64,000 nucleotides of DNA from Candidatus Nanohaloarchaea archaeon (lineage in GTDB: Archaea; Nanohalarchaeota; Nanosalinia; Nanosalinales; Nanosalinaceae). Below the pieces are notes generated by a model that was not told the origin of the DNA, made no database searches, and saw only the letters and a list, made by a program, of their open reading frames with translations. This document shows positions 1-6,098 of this stretch, in pieces. Made by a program: the position numbers and the translations under genes. Within the stretch, counting starts at the first letter, position 1. Each line of letters begins with the position of its first letter. The DNA is taken from the NCBI GenBank assembly GCA_042218075.1, contig JBDGRK010000005.1:68716-132715 (forward strand). The letters run 5' to 3'.

Positions 1-1341
1 TCTGGATGCGTGGACTGTATCTCCCTGGAGGTAGACATCAAGCCAGAATGCTCCTCTTGTTCCTGTCTGGATATCTAGATCGGTTGGCTCACCGTTAATC
101 ACGTAATCGAAGCCATCCCCATCCCTGTAGTAGCTCTCCACCAGTGCCTTAGTGCCGTTTTCACCTCCTATCTCTTCATCGCCAGATATCATCAACACGG
201 CTCTACCGTCAAAGTTTGGATCTCTCCTGAGGTCGACGAATGCCTTCATCATGGCCGCCACCTCGGCCTTCATATCCGTTGCTCCACGGCCGTAAAGCTT
301 TCCATCCAGAACTGTGGGATCAAACGGATCAGTTACCTCCCAACCCACTCCAGGTTCAACAACATCGAGGTGACCGTTGAAGCAGACGGAAGTGCACCCG
401 TTTCCTATCTCGGCCGTGAGGCTCTTTACACCCTGGATGTCGTGTATATCTGATTTTATCCCGTTTTCCTGCAGGTAACGCTCCATAGTTCTGAAGATTT
501 CGGGATCCTTCACCGGGGAGACTGTCTCCTGGCCTATCAGCTCTTTCGCAACATCCACAATATCTCTATCATCGGTTTCAAGCTCTTCCTCTCTGACTCT
601 GCGCCCCTTGTAGCCTATCTTGTGGGAGTAGCCCTTGGTTGACATCACTATTGGATAGAAATCTTCTTCCGCCCTGAGTTCTTCTCCCTCTTTCCTGGCG
701 AAGACCTCTCCCTCTTCAACTTTCTCGAAGTTCCTTGCTGTGAACTCGTAACCCGATCCCTTTTCCTCTCCGAATATGCTGAAAATATCCGGGTCGCTGA
801 CCCTGTAGTCCGCGTCTATAACACCTTCAGCAGCGAGGAAGTTCACCATGATATCATATGCGTTCTCCGCGGCTTCCTCTGAACCCGGCTTGCCGCATTC
901 CACTGAGATACCTCTCATGTAGTTCATCATGGTCTCCGGCATCCAGGAAAGATCCACCGCTGTATCCAGTCCGGAGTTCTTGACCAGATCTAGATCCCTC
1001 GGATCTATGAAGAAACCGAAAGGCGTGGGCTCTGACTCTGTGGAGTGGAAGTCAAGAACTTTAAGACCCTCTACTTCCTCAAGCAGTTCCGCAGCTAGCC
1101 TCTCCTCGTGTACATCGCTTTCAGGGTCTCCCGGGAAGCATCTGTTCAGGTCTTTCTCGATGTACCTTTCCCCCTCTTCCCTTGCCTCTTCATTCGCCAG
1201 AATAAACTTTACCGCTTTCTTCAGCTCGTGTTCCGACCGCTTCAGCTTCCTCATCGCCTTCAATCCGCAGTCCTCCACGCCGTGAACACATGCTATAAGC
1301 GCGTACTCCGGCTTACCCTCACCGAGAATTTCCACCTTCAT
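1..1341 (-). CDS. Fusion of succinylglutamate desuccinylase/aspartoacylase-like (M14) domain and M20 (DapE/ArgE-like) peptidase; runs off left edge
   Basis: Missing from the ORF track because there is no stop in the window. Manual translation from ATG 1341, which overlaps the upstream TGA: MKVEILGEGKPEYALIACVHGVE...DLNRCFPG...DFHST (M14-like), continuing in frame into FNGHLDVV, LYGRGATDMK, GDEEIGG, NGEPT, HAS (M20 motifs). Confidence 0.82.
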   Translation of the reverse strand, partial: MKVEILGEGKPEYALIACVHGVEDCGLKAMRKLKRSEHELKKAVKFILANEEAREEGERYIEKDLNRCFPGDPESDVHEERLAAELLEEVEGLKVLDFHSTESEPTPFGFFIDPRDLDLVKNSGLDTAVDLSWMPETMMNYMRGISVECGKPGSEEAAENAYDIMVNFLAAEGVIDADYRVSDPDIFSIFGEEKGSGYEFTARNFEKVEEGEVFARKEGEELRAEEDFYPIVMSTKGYSHKIGYKGRRVREEELETDDRDIVDVAKELIGQETVSPVKDPEIFRTMERYLQENGIKSDIHDIQGVKSLTAEIGNGCTSVCFNGHLDVVEPGVGWEVTDPFDPTVLDGKLYGRGATDMKAEVAAMMKAFVDLRRDPNFDGRAVLMISGDEEIGGENGTKALVESYYRDGDGFDYVINGEPTDLDIQTGTRGAFWLDVYLQGDTVHASR

Positions 1342-3176
1342 CAGACTCTCGCACCCTGATTCTCGCCGTATTCAGTTGCCGGCATAAGCCCAAGGACATC
1401 CTCCAGATGCGCCTCAAGATCTCCAGCGTATGATGGAGCCATCGCCCCTGCTGTATCCATAACATCTGAATCGTACACATCCCTGTAAATATCCATCCAT
1501 TTTTCCTCTTCGTCAAGTCCAGGGAGGGTCTCAGGATCTGAAGGATCTAAACCTTCTACCTCTTTCTCGAAAGCCTGCCTGATCTTTTCACCGTGAGGCA
1601 TAACTGCTGCCTTTGCAAGAGCAACCTGGTACTCGTCATCGTAGTTCTGTCTCGAGACTCTGTACTCGAATCCTCCTGTAGCTGGCTTGGGCCTTACATC
1701 GTGGTGGATGCCCGCCATATGGGCGATTGAGACGTTTCGCTTGTGGTATTCGTCTTTTCTCTCTTCGTCCATTCCCTTGAGGTCAACCTTTCCTCTGACT
1801 CTCTCAAGTTCCGGTTCCTGATCTGAACCGGAATTAACCACCTTTGTGAATTCAATATCGCCGTCTTCAATATATTCCGCCGGTGTCTTGGCATCATCTG
1901 GACTGAGAGCGAGGAGTGTTACATCTTCCAGCTCTAACTCCTCATCTCCGTAAAACTCGACATATTCCTCGTCAGGAGGCAGGACCCAGACCATGTGATG
2001 CTCTGTCATGTAGTGATCCATCATGTTCTCGAACTCTCCCATTTCTCTCTCCTCATCCAGTAGCTTTTCAATGAGAGTCCAGGGTGTTCCGACCCTGTCT
2101 TGCTTGTCTTCTCCTTCAATCTCTGAAATCACGTGCTGTGCGTAAGTGTCATGCTCCCAGTATACCTGGTTGACTGCGGTCCTGGAGGTTTCTCCCTCGT
2201 ATTCAACCTTTGTGTTCGAACTTACCGTTTCAAGACCTCTCTCGAACAGCATCCTGTAAACAATCTCGTCTGAGATTCTCTGGTCCAGATCAAGGTTGCC
2301 GTTCTCATCCGCAAAAAGTCCTGAAGTCAACTGTGTCGAGCCGCCGAACATGTTAAGAGCGACCTTCGGCCCGAATATCGTGGCCATGTAGTCGAAGTAG
2401 TACGGAACATCGGTGAAATGATCAAAGTACTGGTTCAGGAATGCAAGAGCCTCATCCCTCTCCCATTCCTCCAATTTACCTCTTTTAATTACATCTCTTC
2501 CATCTGTCTCATCCGGAACTTCTTCAGGATCTGTGAACTGCGGCGTCAGTCCTTCTTCAGCGTATTCCAGGGCAGGGAACTCTCTTTCAAGGTAATTCTT
2601 CGTGCCCTCCTTGAAGCTTTCAAGTATAGCCAGCAGAAGACCGAACTCTCCATCTTCAGTGACTCTCACTGCTCCGGAATCTATCTCCTGCTGGGCCCCA
2701 AGATCGAAGTCAATTTCGGGCGTGGAAACCGCTATATCCTGGTCCGAGTCCTCAGTTAAGTCAAGTTTTAGAGCCGCAGGTTTCTGCCCGCCATGACCTT
2801 TCTCAACTACTTTATCCAGTTCAAACTCAAATTCCTCTCCGTATTCATCGGTTCTCTCTCTTAACTCCGAGTCTATCTCGCTCCAGAGCTCCTCGTTCAG
2901 AATCTGCTGATAAACAGGTGAAAGAGGCATCACTCCCTCCTCATTTAAAATCGGATTCTCGCTCTCAATACCGATTCCGACTCCTTCCGAGGAAGAGGCA
3001 TCGACATTCGAATTTTCCTCATAGTTCTCTTCCCAGTCCTCAACAGCACTTTCTCTAAAATCATCGTAAGAAAGGGTTTCCTCTACCTGATCATCTTCTT
3101 CAAGCATCTCTTCCACTGTTTCATTCTCCGAATCTCGGCTTTGAGATTCCGAAACATTTGCTTGTGAAACTGACAT
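1341..3176 (-). CDS. Large acidic hypothetical protein (~611 aa)
   Basis: Long ORF with halophilic D/E-rich composition; ATG 3176 preceded by SD AGGTGA (3181-3186); no family recognised. Confidence 0.75.
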   Translation of the reverse strand: MSVSQANVSESQSRDSENETVEEMLEEDDQVEETLSYDDFRESAVEDWEENYEENSNVDASSSEGVGIGIESENPILNEEGVMPLSPVYQQILNEELWSEIDSELRERTDEYGEEFEFELDKVVEKGHGGQKPAALKLDLTEDSDQDIAVSTPEIDFDLGAQQEIDSGAVRVTEDGEFGLLLAILESFKEGTKNYLEREFPALEYAEEGLTPQFTDPEEVPDETDGRDVIKRGKLEEWERDEALAFLNQYFDHFTDVPYYFDYMATIFGPKVALNMFGGSTQLTSGLFADENGNLDLDQRISDEIVYRMLFERGLETVSSNTKVEYEGETSRTAVNQVYWEHDTYAQHVISEIEGEDKQDRVGTPWTLIEKLLDEEREMGEFENMMDHYMTEHHMVWVLPPDEEYVEFYGDEELELEDVTLLALSPDDAKTPAEYIEDGDIEFTKVVNSGSDQEPELERVRGKVDLKGMDEERKDEYHKRNVSIAHMAGIHHDVRPKPATGGFEYRVSRQNYDDEYQVALAKAAVMPHGEKIRQAFEKEVEGLDPSDPETLPGLDEEEKWMDIYRDVYDSDVMDTAGAMAPSYAGDLEAHLEDVLGLMPATEYGENQGARV

Positions 3177-3265
3177 TGTATCACCTTTCAATTAGGAAGT
3201 GCAGAAAGAGCGAATTCTTTTCATGGAGGCCCGCCCTTTCAACACTCCGGGTCGATGGGCCCCCT

Positions 3266-3424: not shown

Positions 3425-4471
3425 CTATCCGGACCCTGTCTCCTCAAGATACTCCTTTCCCTCAGTGCAGTTTTCTCCAAATTTTTCCAGGTCAGTGTTT
3501 GCGCCACAGAGAGGCACCGCGACCTTTCTTCCCTCCAGATTCATGCCTAAATCTCTGCTGAAAAGCACAGCTGACGCAGCAACTGCTCCCGCAGGTTCAG
3601 TAACGACCTTCTGTCTCTCCGCCAGCATAGCTACAGTCGCCTTCACCTGTTCATCGGAAACATAGACCACTTCGTCGACAAGTTCCCTCATGTGCCCGGC
3701 GGGAAGATCTCCTACCCTTCTCGTAGCTATACCTTTCGCAACTGTGTCGACTGAATCTCTCTCGTACACCTTCTCCCGGTTGATAGTCTGCTTCGCGGAA
3801 CCGCACCCCTCTGTCTGTACACCGACAACTCTTGAATCAGGATTCAGGTGCTTTACTGCCGTAGCGACTCCACTTATTAGACCGCCGCCGCCGATGGCCA
3901 CAAAAACAGTGTTGAGTTCCGGGAACTGTTCCACCATCTCTTTTCCCAGTGTTCCCTGCCCTGCTATAACACCCGGATCATTGTATGGATGGACGAAGGT
4001 TAATCCCTGCTCCTTTTCCAGCTTTCTCGCATATTTCTTCGACTCCTCGAACTCCTCTCCATGGAGAACCACATCAGCACCGTAGCCGGAAGTAGCCTCA
4101 ACCTTCGCATCCGGGGTGTTCTCCGGCATCACTATCGTGGCTTCAACACCAAGCTCTCTGGCGGCGAGAGCAACTCCCTGCGCGTGGTTTCCTGAAGAAG
4201 CTGCGATCACTCCCCTCTCCTTATCTTCCCCGGAGAGCCGGGAAATCTTGTTGTAAGCTCCTCTAAGCTTGAAGGCCCCGGTCCTCTGGAAGTTTTCCAT
4301 CTTGAAACCTACTTTATCAGCTCCGGATTTCTCGGCGAAGGTTCTGGAGAAATCCATCGGAGTTTTCTTCGCGATTCCCTCAAGCCTTTCAGCTGCTCCT
4401 TTTACAGAGCTGTAGCTCACCAGTTCTTCGGATTTTGAAGTTTTCAGCGTTGCGTGGTCGTGTTTTGTCAT
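3425..4471 (-). CDS. ilvA: Threonine ammonia-lyase (threonine dehydratase), short form without C-terminal ACT domain
   Basis: KMENFQRTGAFKLRGA PLP-lysine motif, ASSGNHAQGVA, GGGGLISG; ATG 4471 preceded by SD GAGGTG. Confidence 0.92.
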   Translation of the reverse strand: MTKHDHATLKTSKSEELVSYSSVKGAAERLEGIAKKTPMDFSRTFAEKSGADKVGFKMENFQRTGAFKLRGAYNKISRLSGEDKERGVIAASSGNHAQGVALAARELGVEATIVMPENTPDAKVEATSGYGADVVLHGEEFEESKKYARKLEKEQGLTFVHPYNDPGVIAGQGTLGKEMVEQFPELNTVFVAIGGGGLISGVATAVKHLNPDSRVVGVQTEGCGSAKQTINREKVYERDSVDTVAKGIATRRVGDLPAGHMRELVDEVVYVSDEQVKATVAMLAERQKVVTEPAGAVAASAVLFSRDLGMNLEGRKVAVPLCGANTDLEKFGENCTEGKEYLEETGSG

Positions 4472-4517
4472 TTTGCGAAGCACCTCTTGGAGAATAATCT
4501 AAGAGAAAGCTCGATTT

Positions 4518-4640
4518 CTACCCAATAATACCGATAATCGAAATGATGGAAATAGATCCAGAAACTTCAGAAAAATCAGATAGAGTTGGGACTCCCGAAA
4601 CTTTACTCAGATTCAGTAGACCGAAGGATAAAGCGTCCAC
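4518..4640 (-). CDS. Putative Ile-rich leader peptide of ilvA (MDALSFGLLNLSKVSGVPTLSDFSEVSGSISIISIIGIIG)
   Basis: GTG start 22 nt after TTTATAAT (leaderless position); 7 Ile in the last 11 codons and none before; stop 46 nt upstream of the ilvA ATG. Confidence 0.68.
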   Translation of the reverse strand: MDALSFGLLNLSKVSGVPTLSDFSEVSGSISIISIIGIIG

Positions 4641-4701
4641 CCTTCATTGACGAACTCACAGAATTATAAAGAGAAATAAGAATTTAAAAAGGGAAGGGAG
4701 A

Positions 4702-5469
4702 TTACATTCCCATAGTTCCCTGAGAATCGACCTCATCTGTTTCCGGAGTTCGGTCTCGAACATAGCTATCTATAGATGTTCCCGGCATGTAGCCTCTTGA
4801 TTTAATGTACTCCTCTCTGGCTTCAACTATAACTTCATCCGGTATCTCAACATCTCTTCGAGCTTCTGGAGCCCCATCATACCTGTTAGCGGTTACAGCA
4901 TAGCGAGTATCTCCTTCGAGAAGCTGGGTTATCTGCCACTCATGAACCGGATTGATATTGCTCCCAGTGACTTCCTCAAGAAAGTTCTCATCATCTATAT
5001 CCGTCTCCTGCGCCAAGACCCTTATCATCTCCAAATCGTCCACACCAAGATATTCCTCCTCTTCAGGCACTCTATCTCCATAGATCAGAGAATCCGGCAT
5101 CTCATCTTTATAGATGAAATCTCCTTCTCCCGGATCCCACCATCTCTGATCTCTCGGATCCTGTCTGAACTCTACAGTCTCAGCACCACGATTATCAGTG
5201 CCGCTCTGAGTTTGAGTTATCACACCTCCATCGGTTCTTGCTTCATAACCCTCTTCTTCAAACATGAATTCTGAGGCGGTTTCCATATCGCTTTTCTCTT
5301 CCATGATAGAATCGTGGGGATGTTCTGTACTTGTACCGGGATCCCGGCTTTTAGCTTCATTCGGATTTGTGGGCGGAGATTCATCATGAAGAATTTCATG
5401 AACCCTGATGCCTTCTCTGAGTCTTTCATCCAATTCTTCCCTATTCTTGTACTGAGACTTACCCATCAT
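4702..5469 (-). CDS. Acidic hypothetical protein
   Basis: 255-aa ORF with halophilic composition; SD GGAGGTGA upstream. Confidence 0.7.
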   Translation of the reverse strand: MMGKSQYKNREELDERLREGIRVHEILHDESPPTNPNEAKSRDPGTSTEHPHDSIMEEKSDMETASEFMFEEEGYEARTDGGVITQTQSGTDNRGAETVEFRQDPRDQRWWDPGEGDFIYKDEMPDSLIYGDRVPEEEEYLGVDDLEMIRVLAQETDIDDENFLEEVTGSNINPVHEWQITQLLEGDTRYAVTANRYDGAPEARRDVEIPDEVIVEAREEYIKSRGYMPGTSIDSYVRDRTPETDEVDSQGTMGM

Positions 5470-5546
5470 CTCTCACCTCCTTCTACAGCTGTTTCCACGG
5501 ATTTTGAGTCGCGTTGCGTATGTTGGGTTTGGTTGTAGTTTGTCAT
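5466..5546 (-). CDS. 26-aa small ORF (MTNYNQTQHTQRDSKSVETAVEGGER) translationally coupled to the downstream gene
   Basis: Strong SD GAGGTGA before ATG 5546; its TGA overlaps the next ATG (ATGA). Confidence 0.45.
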   Translation of the reverse strand: MTNYNQTQHTQRDSKSVETAVEGGER

Positions 5547-5594
5547 AGAGTGTTCACCTCGAAATTGAGAAACGAGAAATGAACACTGCGCTTT

Positions 5595-5708
5595 TTACAG
5601 CAGCAGTGCCAGCAGAATCAAAAGTAGCAGTGAAAGTCCAAGATCAATTGAATCGGAAATCGAGAAAATAGCTGGAGCTCGTTTATCGCAATTCCAGAAC
5701 GCGTCCAC
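5595..5708 (-). CDS. Putative Leu-rich leader peptide (MDAFWNCDKRAPAIFSISDSIDLGLSLLLLILLALLL)
   Basis: GTG start with the same GTG-GAC-GCN opening as the ilvA leader; 11 Leu in the last 15 codons; stop lies inside a hairpin that competes with an SD-sequestering helix. Confidence 0.6.
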   Translation of the reverse strand: MDAFWNCDKRAPAIFSISDSIDLGLSLLLLILLALLL

Positions 5709-5750
5709 CTATAGTTAATGGCTCCATACTATTTCCCGTTTAATCAGTCT

Positions 5751-6098
5751 TTATAAATTCTTGAGGTTGGCAGTCGCACTGTGATGTCTGTCTTTGCCAT
5801 GCGCAGGATGCCTGTCTATTTCAGAATTTAGCAATCTTTCCGCTTTATTCACCTTTTTGGCATCTTCAGGTTCAAGTTCTACATTTACATCTCTGAGTTT
5901 TATTTCAGCCAAATCCATCAAGTTATACATAGAATCAGAGGGTGTATCCTGGATAAGATCATTCAAATATTCAGCAGCTTCCTCCAGAGCGTCACTTTCA
6001 TATCTATCGGCAATAGTTTCGATGTCGGCAGTCGCTTCTCTGATATCGTCATATCTATCAAGAGCTTCCTTTGGGTAGACGACCATATTACTTATCAT
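5751..6098 (-). CDS. Hypothetical protein
   Basis: 115-aa acidic helical ORF. Confidence 0.6.
   Translation of the reverse strand: MISNMVVYPKEALDRYDDIREATADIETIADRYESDALEEAAEYLNDLIQDTPSDSMYNLMDLAEIKLRDVNVELEPEDAKKVNKAERLLNSEIDRHPAHGKDRHHSATANLKNL

Follow-up and report, generated by a model that had tools for sequence, protein, structure and literature searches.

Probable leader-encoded sensors of tRNA charging

Amino-acid-specific control of aminoacyl-tRNA synthetase (aaRS) and biosynthetic genes is textbook knowledge in bacteria, where attenuators and T-boxes exert it; to our knowledge, such control is essentially unknown in Archaea. In bacterial attenuators (ilvGMEDA, ilvBN, trpL, pheL), the ribosome reads a short upstream open reading frame (ORF) whose cognate codons, clustered near the C-terminus of the leader peptide, report tRNA charging. 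In the T-box of Gram-positive bacteria, one conserved scaffold is combined with a variable specifier codon that matches the downstream aaRS or biosynthetic gene. Elements of both arrangements are found in a stretch of 64,000 nucleotides (nt) from a Candidatus Nanohaloarchaea archaeon (assembly GCA_042218075.1, contig JBDGRK010000005.1, positions 68,716 to 132,715). This stretch is hereafter called the window, and all its features described below lie on the minus strand. Here, region 4690–4471, which runs up to the start of a dehydratase gene, is very probably an isoleucine-specific, ribosome-read leader belonging to a nanohaloarchaeal family of such leaders, judging by its own sequence and those of its relatives. 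A sequence-only reading of the window had already proposed an Ile-specific leader read by the ribosome for this dehydratase, and that core idea is supported by the Ile run of orthologous leaders together with a specifier rule that holds across the family. The anatomy it drew was right about the Ile-run ORF, but it overlooked the 5′ sensor ORF (M..KGGRF-I), a conserved 13-mer, and the fact that the Ile-run ORF occupies the +1 frame.

With bacterial attenuators, the window shares an upstream ORF carrying a cluster of cognate codons near its end (7 Ile in 11 codons, recurring at 6 ortholog loci). The leaders described here differ in being archaeal and probably part of leaderless mRNAs, in having two overlapping frames, and in controlling aaRS genes as well, with a common 13-nt motif and a single specifier codon serving at least 10 amino acids. 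Neither a terminator/antiterminator pair with a U run nor conserved alternative helices were found in the orthologous leaders, among which T6 runs occur only in L002 and L027. With the T-box, the common logic is the scaffold with its exchangeable codon; in contrast to the T-box, the codon here would be read by a ribosome within an ORF rather than through tRNA–RNA pairing, and there is no Stem I, antiterminator, or Rfam match. The T-box riboswitch (RF00230) was itself tried as a candidate and dropped: no Rfam family matched anywhere in the window at its gathering score, and a search of 4400–5800 at E ≤ 10 returned three weak snoRNA-like matches outside the leaders and none within them.

Two further systems involve a change of reading frame or a masked ribosome-binding site. 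In ermC-type attenuation, a leader ORF lies upstream of a masked Shine–Dalgarno sequence (SD), as is predicted here, though marginally against shuffled sequences. In the ketolide case, drug-induced frameshifting in the ermC leader ORF produces frame-changed ribosomes that read on and open the downstream mRNA structure, whereupon the downstream gene is initiated (PMC5009743). The signal in the present leaders would be an uncharged tRNA at one codon instead of a drug, and in most orthologs the SD hairpin does not overlap the leader ORF. The frameshift sites of prfB (RF2) and antizyme share with these leaders an SD-like element upstream of a shift-prone codon in the ribosomal peptidyl (P) site that is capable of re-pairing, a slow codon in the aminoacyl (A) site acting as the sensor, an early stop in frame 0 (a median of 8 codons here), and a long +1 frame (38 codons here). 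In the present family, however, which sense codon serves as sensor differs between genes, the +1 frame is mostly leader and not protein, and the spacing of the SD-like element resembles that of initiation rather than 3 nt. No description of this leader family was found in the literature, judged from titles and abstract openings.

An isoleucine-rich frame ahead of the dehydratase

The gene in question (3425..4471, ATG at 4471) encodes a 348-amino-acid (aa) pyridoxal-phosphate enzyme of the threonine/serine dehydratase family. PALP is its sole Pfam domain (6.8e-78, residues 39–327). Among NCBIfam models, ilvA_1Cterm (TIGR01127) matches best, with 361.9 bits against a cut-off of 378.75 that is not reached; the protein falls even further under the cut-offs of TdcB, hydroxyaspartate-lyase, and other NCBIfam models. 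Because the ilvA_1Cterm match covers profile positions 1–290 and ends there, out of 380, the ACT-like C-terminal regulatory domain is missing, as had been claimed from the sequence alone. "ACT-less threonine dehydratase" is thus a fair label for the protein, with a putative substrate assignment. Its SD, AGAGGTG, occupies 4487–4481.

The Ile-rich ORF lies where the earlier reading had placed its leader, from GTG 4640 to TAG 4518 (4518..4640). It comprises 40 codons, reads (V/M)DALSFGLLNLSKVSGVPTLSDFSEVSGSISIISIIGIIG, and ends in ISIISIIGIIG before a stop codon located 46 nt ahead of the dehydratase start. Seven of its last 11 sense codons (4521..4553) are ATT or ATC. Its conservation was examined in a sample of 70 species genomes, in which the phylum and order sets are identical. 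Outside the source assembly (G000; 1.10 Mb, 40 contigs, 92% complete), dehydratase orthologs of 63–70% identity occur in four of these genomes (G023, G057, G012, G052; loci L002, L003, L025, L026, with L025 being G057:C17). A scan of metagenomes with the dehydratase returned four loci, two of which (L027 and L028) are contigs with close orthologs of 71–72% identity. These two share one leader sequence and are counted jointly. In L025, the 5′ half of the leader is a run of N, leaving motif and specifier codon unread and only the tail legible.

An Ile-rich ORF precedes every readable close ortholog, at 6/6 loci: L001, L002, L003, L026, and L027/L028 in full, L025 in part. These ORFs begin with (V/M)DAL and end in an Ile-rich tail, namely ..ISAIGIISIIGMIMG in L002, ..VIGIIGIIGMIMG in L025, ..GSIISIIAIIG in L003, ..SAIISIIGIIAIIG in L026, and ..SISIIGIIGMIMG in L027/L028, each followed directly by the stop codon. 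The proposal of an Ile-sensing leader had been made vulnerable to a loss of the Ile codons in orthologous leaders; the run is retained at all six. Between lineages, the codons differ synonymously (ATT/ATC, GGT/GGC, TCC/TCG/TCT), which argues that the frame of the Ile-rich ORF is under selection. Distant dehydratase homologs (L004 in G027, 48% identity; L029, 50%; L030, 38%) have no such leader ORF.

A 13-mer followed by a specifier codon

All readable orthologs share the opening 15 bases of the ORF region letter for letter, even in third codon positions, an observation that led to a pattern search across the 70 genomes. With at most one mismatch, GGGTGGACGCTTTAT gave 33 matches in 23/70 genomes, against 3 for its reversed control. 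The exact 13-mer GGGTGGACGYTTT gave 102 matches in 38/70 genomes, against 1. A variant with GTT in place of the terminal TTT matched 49 times, and ATT and CTT variants matched twice each; together with GTT, this pattern was found in 31/70 genomes, with 10 matches for the correspondingly threefold-degenerate control. Frame filters kept 39 of the 48 GTT matches that were fetched; the 9 others and the ATT and CTT matches were dropped, most of them lying within long ORFs of high-GC contigs. The TTT and GTT forms together occur in 45/70 genomes. Other variants of the motif (GGATGG, GGGAGG, GGTTGG, GGAAGG) appear at chance level only.

The copy in the window, GGGTGGACGCTTT (4630..4642), is one of the 102 exact ones and consists of an SD-like (A/G)GGUGG, a spacer ACGY, and the P-site codon UUU. 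In a frame set one base ahead of that of the sequence-only reading, the motif is (A)AG GGT GGA CGY TTT, encoding K-G-G-R-F. Conservation at the nucleotide level near the motif also includes CAA at −7..−5 and AA at −2/−1. GGGUGG can pair with the 3′ end of 16S rRNA, ..GAUCACCUCCA, a sequence taken from G021, G005, and G023, as this end was not located in G000. When a 20-nt form of the motif was searched in 185,579 species genomes, it returned 35 stretches, 31 of them nanohaloarchaeal or labelled "uncultured archaeon" and 4 bacterial; about 9 matches are expected by chance, by our own estimate from the pattern length. Records that share the motif carry the names Candidatus Nanohaloarchaea, Nanohalarchaeota, Nanosalina, and Nanosalinarum. 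Among the genomes searched, the leader family is almost confined to Nanohaloarchaeota.

The codon immediately after the UUU of the 13-mer, here denoted X, tells what the motif is attached to. Wherever the downstream gene encodes an aaRS, X is cognate to it: 63/63 leaders, covering 10 amino acids. (Downstream ORFs were clustered, and cluster representatives annotated by NCBIfam or Pfam; the 63 comprise 50/50 from the TTT set, 11/11 from the GTT set, and the TyrRS and ProRS leaders of G000 from a relaxed scan.) In the TTT set, X specifies Thr before ThrRS (9 loci), Ser before SerRS (14), Gly before GlyRS (9), Val before ValRS (8), Trp before TrpRS (5), Cys before CysRS (3), and Phe before PheRS-alpha (2). 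The GTT set adds HisRS (2), ProRS (4), SerRS (2), and TrpRS (3), all cognate, and the relaxed scan adds TyrRS with X = TAC and ProRS with X = CCA, both confirmed by NCBIfam.

Genes other than aaRS genes are also found behind these leaders. Trp codons at X occur upstream of TrpB, anthranilate synthase I (TrpE), an M20 deacylase, and several proteins of no known family. Leu codons, in the GTT set, occur upstream of a LeuA-type synthase, a class-I glutamine amidotransferase, and acidic proteins of no known family. X is Ile at 17 loci, which lead to the dehydratase (4), a 393-aa protein of unknown family (4), other unassigned ORFs (7), a class I/II aminotransferase (1), and, at one locus, a DEAD-box helicase that is the nearest long ORF, 717 nt away. 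In the window, X is ATC (Ile; 4627..4629), and ATC or ATT is present in 4/5 readable dehydratase leaders. Not every aaRS gene uses a leader: the IleRS genes of the five dehydratase genomes (L140–L144) have none, and instead show a conserved CTTTTAACTTTCA promoter with the arrangement TTTTAA, 23 nt, ATG.

Two overlapping reading frames

The rule that X matches the downstream gene means that frame 0, in which UUU and X are codons, is decoded at X. In the window, this frame forms a sensor ORF (uORF1, 4603..4659) that runs from GTG 4659 through SSS and ATG 4647 to KGGRF-I-LRSTESE and TAA, thus reading VSSSMKGGRF-I-LRSTESE in full. Its orthologs read MSSAMKGGRFIVGSARLR, MSSATKGGRFIVRATRF, MSSATKGGRFIVRAAGF, and MNSAPISGGRFMGGCPILE.., each closed by a stop codon. 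Across the family, an in-frame ATG is found 0–17 codons 5′ of the motif, and the frame-0 stop a median of 8 codons 3′ of it.

In the window, 23 nt separate an upstream TATA-like box, TTTTTAAA (4683..4690), from the sensor ORF's first codon, and the same box is found 22–23 nt before the sensor ATG in L002, L003, L026, and L027, giving 5/5 readable dehydratase leaders with this spacing. More broadly, 56 of the 102 leaders have a TATA-like hexamer ending 18–28 nt before an in-frame start, and in 41 of the 56 the distance is 23–24 nt. This spacing equals the leaderless geometry of the IleRS genes (TTTTAA + 23 nt + ATG), which served as a calibration. The sensor ORF is therefore best placed, on promoter spacing, as what is probably the 5′-terminal ORF of a leaderless mRNA.

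Frame 0 is overlapped by a far longer +1 frame. Measured from X in the 102 leaders, the median open length is 38 codons in the +1 frame, 8 in frame 0, and 11 in frame +2; the +1 frame outlasts frame 0 in 101/102 leaders and frame +2 in 95/102. Where it ends depends on the kind of gene that follows. In aaRS leaders, the +1 stop and the main start overlap or adjoin each other (ATGA and similar), with the start at most 10 nt from the stop in 40/46 leaders (4 of the 50 aaRS leaders, having no start candidate near the +1 stop, are omitted). Some Trp and Lys leaders have a +1 frame that continues into the main ORF as a fusion. The +1 ORF of the other, non-aaRS leaders closes with a run of the cognate residue. 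The fraction of Ile in the last 12 residues is 0.43 where X is Ile (n = 17) and 0.04 in other leaders (n = 67); Ile/Leu-rich tails are found in 15/17 leaders with X = Ile, and leaders with X = Val that do not precede ValRS have Val-rich tails. The Ile run of the window thus exemplifies what the non-aaRS branch regularly shows.

Two further observations concern the +1 ORFs. The short +1 ORFs of Trp leaders have a conserved end, ..(I/L)SS(V/I)xx(L/F)SW(R)xx and stop, with a single Trp near the stop codon; by its sequence, this end looks like a nascent-peptide motif. In some genomes, the +1 ORF of His and Tyr leaders encodes an AbrB/MazE-type (PF04014) domain of 56–80 aa (L165, 1272–1511 (−); L164, 1344–1511 (−)), so that a regulator with this domain may itself be made under codon control.

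Linking the two frames

As the link between the sensor ORF and the +1 ORF, a +1 ribosomal frameshift at UUU-X, provoked by a hungry codon X, is favored, and we give it odds that come close to even. Extended to the window, the complete scheme would consist of an Ile-specific translational leader with a +1 shift at UUU-AUC and a subsequent stall in the Ile run that favors the dehydratase; we regard this account, the best we can offer, as having an even chance of being correct. Translation most likely begins at the 5′ end of a leaderless mRNA on the frame-0 ORF, M..K-G-G-R-F plus the specifier AUC. This frame stops 8 codons past the specifier, and the overlapping +1 frame stays open up to the Ile run, 46 nt before the dehydratase. 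With charged Ile-tRNA, AUC would be decoded, translation would terminate early, and the dehydratase would be poorly translated. When Ile-tRNA is scarce, the ribosome would pause on UUU, its P site occupied by tRNA-Phe and its A site empty, be held there by the SD-like GGGUGG, and slip by +1. The shifted ribosome would then translate the Ile-rich ORF and stall again in the Ile run, beside the masked SD, so that dehydratase initiation is favored. In aaRS members, the +1 ORF would instead reach the main start codon and lead to termination–reinitiation.

This link is preferred for two reasons of logic. Its polarity is sensible, as starvation would raise aaRS, TrpB, TrpE, and LeuA; and without it, a ribosome stalled at X in a non-aaRS leader would bar the way into the ORF that itself bears the second sensor of cognate codons. 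A tetranucleotide rule formed by the P-site codon and the first base of X fits slippage as well. After UUU, the first base of X is A in 27 leaders, G in 24, U in 51, and C in none; after GUU, it is C in 29, U in 10, and neither A nor G in any. By our own base-pair count, the combinations in use keep 2/3 anticodon pairs after a +1 slip, or an unchanged 3/3, and the unused ones are UUU_C, which would pair better after the slip, and GUU_A and GUU_G, which would be left with 1/3. (The count takes tRNA-Phe with anticodon GAA, found in G000, and tRNA-Val with GAC, which is assumed.) The P-site codon is interchangeable within orthologous groups: SerRS leaders have 14 UUU and 2 GUU, and TrpRS leaders 5 UUU and 3 GUU. 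UUU_Y(nn) is a known +1-prone site, and frameshifting in the ermC leader ORF is known to open structure downstream (PMC5009743); the capacity of GGGUGG to pair with the 3′ end of 16S rRNA also speaks for slippage. Taken together, these elements would make up a portable cassette of leaderless start, GGGUGG, slippery UUU or GUU, and hungry specifier, in which only +1-shifted ribosomes activate the downstream gene; we put this generalization at a little under an even chance.

Several observations weigh against the slippage scheme. The GGGUGG–UUU spacing resembles that of initiation: by our own count, UUU comes 7 nt after the partner of C1535 (the 16S base used for the count, in E. coli numbering) and 4 nt after GGGUGG. 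The analogy with prfB, where an SD-like element 3 nt away stimulates +1 shifting, is accordingly imperfect, the element being spaced otherwise here. The invariant GUG in the motif could be an ordinary start codon, and the chance-level occurrence of AUG and GGGAGG variants fits dual coding as well as it fits an RNA-level constraint. The P-site/X1 rule could partly reflect common descent of the leaders. In the 92%-complete G000, aragorn did not find tRNA-Val(GAC) (9 tRNAs by default; 37 in intron mode, some of them probably false). Among the dehydratase leaders themselves, the sensor ORF of G000 has GTG rather than ATG as its first codon, and L027/L028 have ATG (Met), not Ile, at X. Finally, masking a ribosome over the Ile run or the stop codon in silico leaves the SD paired in 5/6 leaders.

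The physiology of the dehydratase raises a further difficulty. In the five genomes that carry the gene (G000, G023, G057, G012, G052), no ilvB, ilvC, or ilvD scored over its cut-off (controls 14/14), and one of the five, G023, is a single contig of 99% completeness. The scheme thus gives no reason why Ile should govern the dehydratase, and a biosynthetic role of the enzyme is doubtful. The same finding renders doubtful, and leaves unproven, the earlier suggestion that the leader replaces allosteric control of Ile biosynthesis. An Aminotran_4 gene is present only in G000 among the five. Compared with the IlvA and TdcB threonine ammonia-lyases, the protein has the same PALP fold-type II catalytic domain and its best NCBIfam similarity is to ilvA_1Cterm, but it falls under every equivalog cut-off, lacks an ACT-like domain, and resides in genomes with no detected ilvB, ilvC, or ilvD. 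The regulatory logic points to isoleucine, and that of the neighboring leader to leucine, but the five genomes lack the canonical path leading from 2-oxobutyrate to Ile. The dehydratase may serve some other Ile-linked need of a host-dependent cell.

Alternatives to a frameshift

The strongest competitor, possible though clearly less probable than slippage, is that two overlapping upstream ORFs (uORFs) are initiated separately, the leaderless frame-0 uORF sensing AUC and the +1 ORF starting at the GUG of the motif. A ribosome stalled at AUC would cover this GUG, 11 nt upstream, and alter translation of the +1 ORF, which would then mask, unmask, or couple to the main start. The GUG is indeed invariant, and even the GTT variant preserves the +1 start (V/M)-D-(A/V)-(L/F); that neither GGGAGG nor AUG variants rise above chance is also expected if both frames constrain the bases. 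Moreover, an SD of at least 4 nt is present at 31/46 aaRS starts, making their own initiation possible, so that a repressive overlapping uORF would give the right polarity. However, the motif GUG has no usable SD and is 8–25 nt away from the 5′ end. Ribosomes stalled at X would also block the +1 ORF just when its run should sense, rendering the Ile, Val, and Trp tails pointless, and separate initiation does not account for why UUU never precedes C and GUU never precedes A or G. Whatever probability slippage and separate uORFs leave to the connection between the frames goes to other links that are neither of the two.

An improbable reading takes the 13-mer for a protein- or RNA-binding site, such as a repressor site where transcription starts or a tRNA contact in the manner of the T-box, with the ORFs as by-products. 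It would explain conservation at the level of nucleotides, including CAA at −7..−5 and AA at −2/−1, and GGGUGG may resemble the start of the bacterial T-box sequence. But no Rfam family, T-box included, covers the leaders at E ≤ 10, and a specifier directly adjoining the motif cannot span a tRNA as the T-box does. The in-frame ATG, early frame-0 stop, open +1 frame, and cognate tails are signatures of coding, and one factor would be unable to give at least 10 amino-acid specificities.

More unlikely still is the mechanism of the sequence-only reading as written, in which a single GUG-initiated leader is stalled at its Ile codons and the stall chooses between helix 1 and an SD-masking helix 2. 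Both pairings exist. Helix 1 (4511..4541) joins UCGAUU at 4541–4536 to AAUCGA at 4516–4511 and encloses the TAG stop codon; helix 2 (4481..4512), a predicted hairpin that pairs GAGC..CUCUU at 4512–4501 with AAGAG..GCUU at 4491–4481, is found in the minimum free energy (MFE) folds and covers the SD (4487–4481). An SD-masking hairpin is also predicted in all six orthologous leaders, where the pairing partner is a pyrimidine-rich stretch just upstream and the probability that the SD is unpaired is 0.00–0.21 in 6/6, a result whose edge over shuffle controls (0.02–0.79) is marginal. The proposed switch, however, finds no footing in the folds. Helices 1 and 2 coexist in the MFE structure, and when the fold was run with and without a ribosome footprint, as the earlier reading had recommended, the window SD stayed paired under the masks (unpaired probability 0.02–0.13). 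The fold of 4440–4660 is not unusually stable, with z = −0.25 and 78 of 200 shuffles at least as stable. Hairpin sequences over the SD differ among lineages, and RNAalifold on the six leaders retains only a 5-bp hairpin of −2.7 kcal/mol with the stop codon in its loop, which differs from helix 1. With no helices that are both conserved and responsive to masking, a competition between helix 1 and helix 2 is not supported. The mechanism also ignores the 13-mer with its matching specifier at 102 + 49 loci.

That the Ile-rich ORF encodes a small protein with a hydrophobic tail that functions in its own right is scarcely credible: both ends of the peptide are conserved in 6 orthologs, but its middle is variable, its 11-residue tail is too short to span a membrane, and tail composition follows the specifier across the family (Ile, Val, Leu, Trp).

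A second leader and the genomic surroundings

The window contains a second, Leu-specific leader of the same family (5595..5757), recognized by its motif and frames and by the relaxed scan of G000, 1 kb upstream of the Ile leader. It has a TATA box, TTTATAAA (5757–5750), a sensor ORF reading MEPLTIGGRV-L-ELR and stop (5727..5683) with CTG as specifier (5697–5695), the motif AGGTGGACGCGTT (5710–5698), and a +1 ORF (5708..5595) ending in LSLLLLILLALLL before its stop codon. Behind it (4702..5546) follow a 26-codon ORF, MTNYNQTQHTQRDSKS.. (5546..5466), and an acidic protein of 255 aa that belongs to no Pfam or NCBIfam family (5469..4702), whose ATG is overlapped by the stop codon of the small ORF. 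The gene order is therefore Leu leader, 26-codon ORF and 255-aa protein, Ile leader, dehydratase.

Main ORFs behind non-aaRS leaders have an A/C-rich start of the form MT(N/Q/K)..T(Q)H.. (MTKHDH.., MTNYNQTQHTQRDSKS.., MTNTTHHNHDANVKNQ.., MTQQKYTTTQHDSAKP..), seen in the window at 4469–4471 and 5544–5546 and in L234 at 2412–2504 (−). In some cases this start is joined to the enzyme; in others it makes up an ORF of its own, 26–30 codons long and coupled to the next gene. The shared MT.. start behind the leaders suggests that the whole cassette was duplicated as a unit. Downstream of the dehydratase, a 616-aa acidic protein of no known family (1341–3191) contains a pattern, ..G(I/M)G(I/V)ESE.P...E(E/D)G(V/I)MP.., by which, to the eye, it resembles proteins found right behind Leu or Ile leaders elsewhere (G010:C1:745965, G053:C16:6910, G066:C67:2658).

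Elsewhere in G000, leaders precede TyrRS (C36:53781 (+)), SerRS (C36:54964 (+)), ThrRS (C14:68729 (−)), ValRS (C23:22632 (−)), PheRS-alpha (C10:44943 (−)), and ProRS (C40:12843 (−)). At C10:50652 (−), a Trp leader is fused to a protein of ~240 aa and no known family, and at C36:64178 (−) an Ile/Leu double-motif leader has the tail ..SIILIVLLLIV and stop. Double motifs recur in many Ile leaders (L111, L112, L123), where KGGRF-I ... KGG(R/C/H)V-L stand in tandem within one sensor ORF and in a common +1 frame register, an arrangement that suggests combined sensing of Ile and Leu. In L027/L028, a degenerate second motif follows 15 nt after the first, and the tails mix Ile and Met (..IIGMIMG and stop).

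The encoded proteins are acidic, the RadB gene adjoins, and no tRNA gene was found within the window. Its segment 50001–52000 has a G+C content of 0.357, against 0.42–0.53 in the rest.

What the leader family would mean

Sensing of tRNA charging by a leader ORF is a known principle. New are the universal motif with its single specifier codon, the two overlapping frames, the leaderless archaeal context, and the control of aaRS genes. If the frameshift link is true, the system would be categorically new. It would be a functional counterpart of the T-box that works through the ribosome, and it would provide the first case both of amino-acid-specific cis-control of archaeal aaRS genes and of a natural regulatory frameshift sensing how many different tRNAs are charged. 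The Ile leader of the dehydratase would then be a two-stage version, in which a frameshift is followed by a stall in the Ile run. Were the mechanism confirmed, it would also offer a compact programmable sensor part. For annotation, the family carries a warning, since proteins starting with "VDAFG.." and many small ORFs are mis-called in these genomes.

For Nanohaloarchaeota, the leaders represent a modular archaeal solution, with ~150 loci in 45/70 genomes and at least 12 amino-acid specificities: Thr, Ser, Gly, Val, Trp, Cys, Phe, His, Pro, and Tyr in aaRS leaders, and Ile and Leu in others. Through them, unannotated nanohaloarchaeal genes could be assigned to the amino acid to which they respond.

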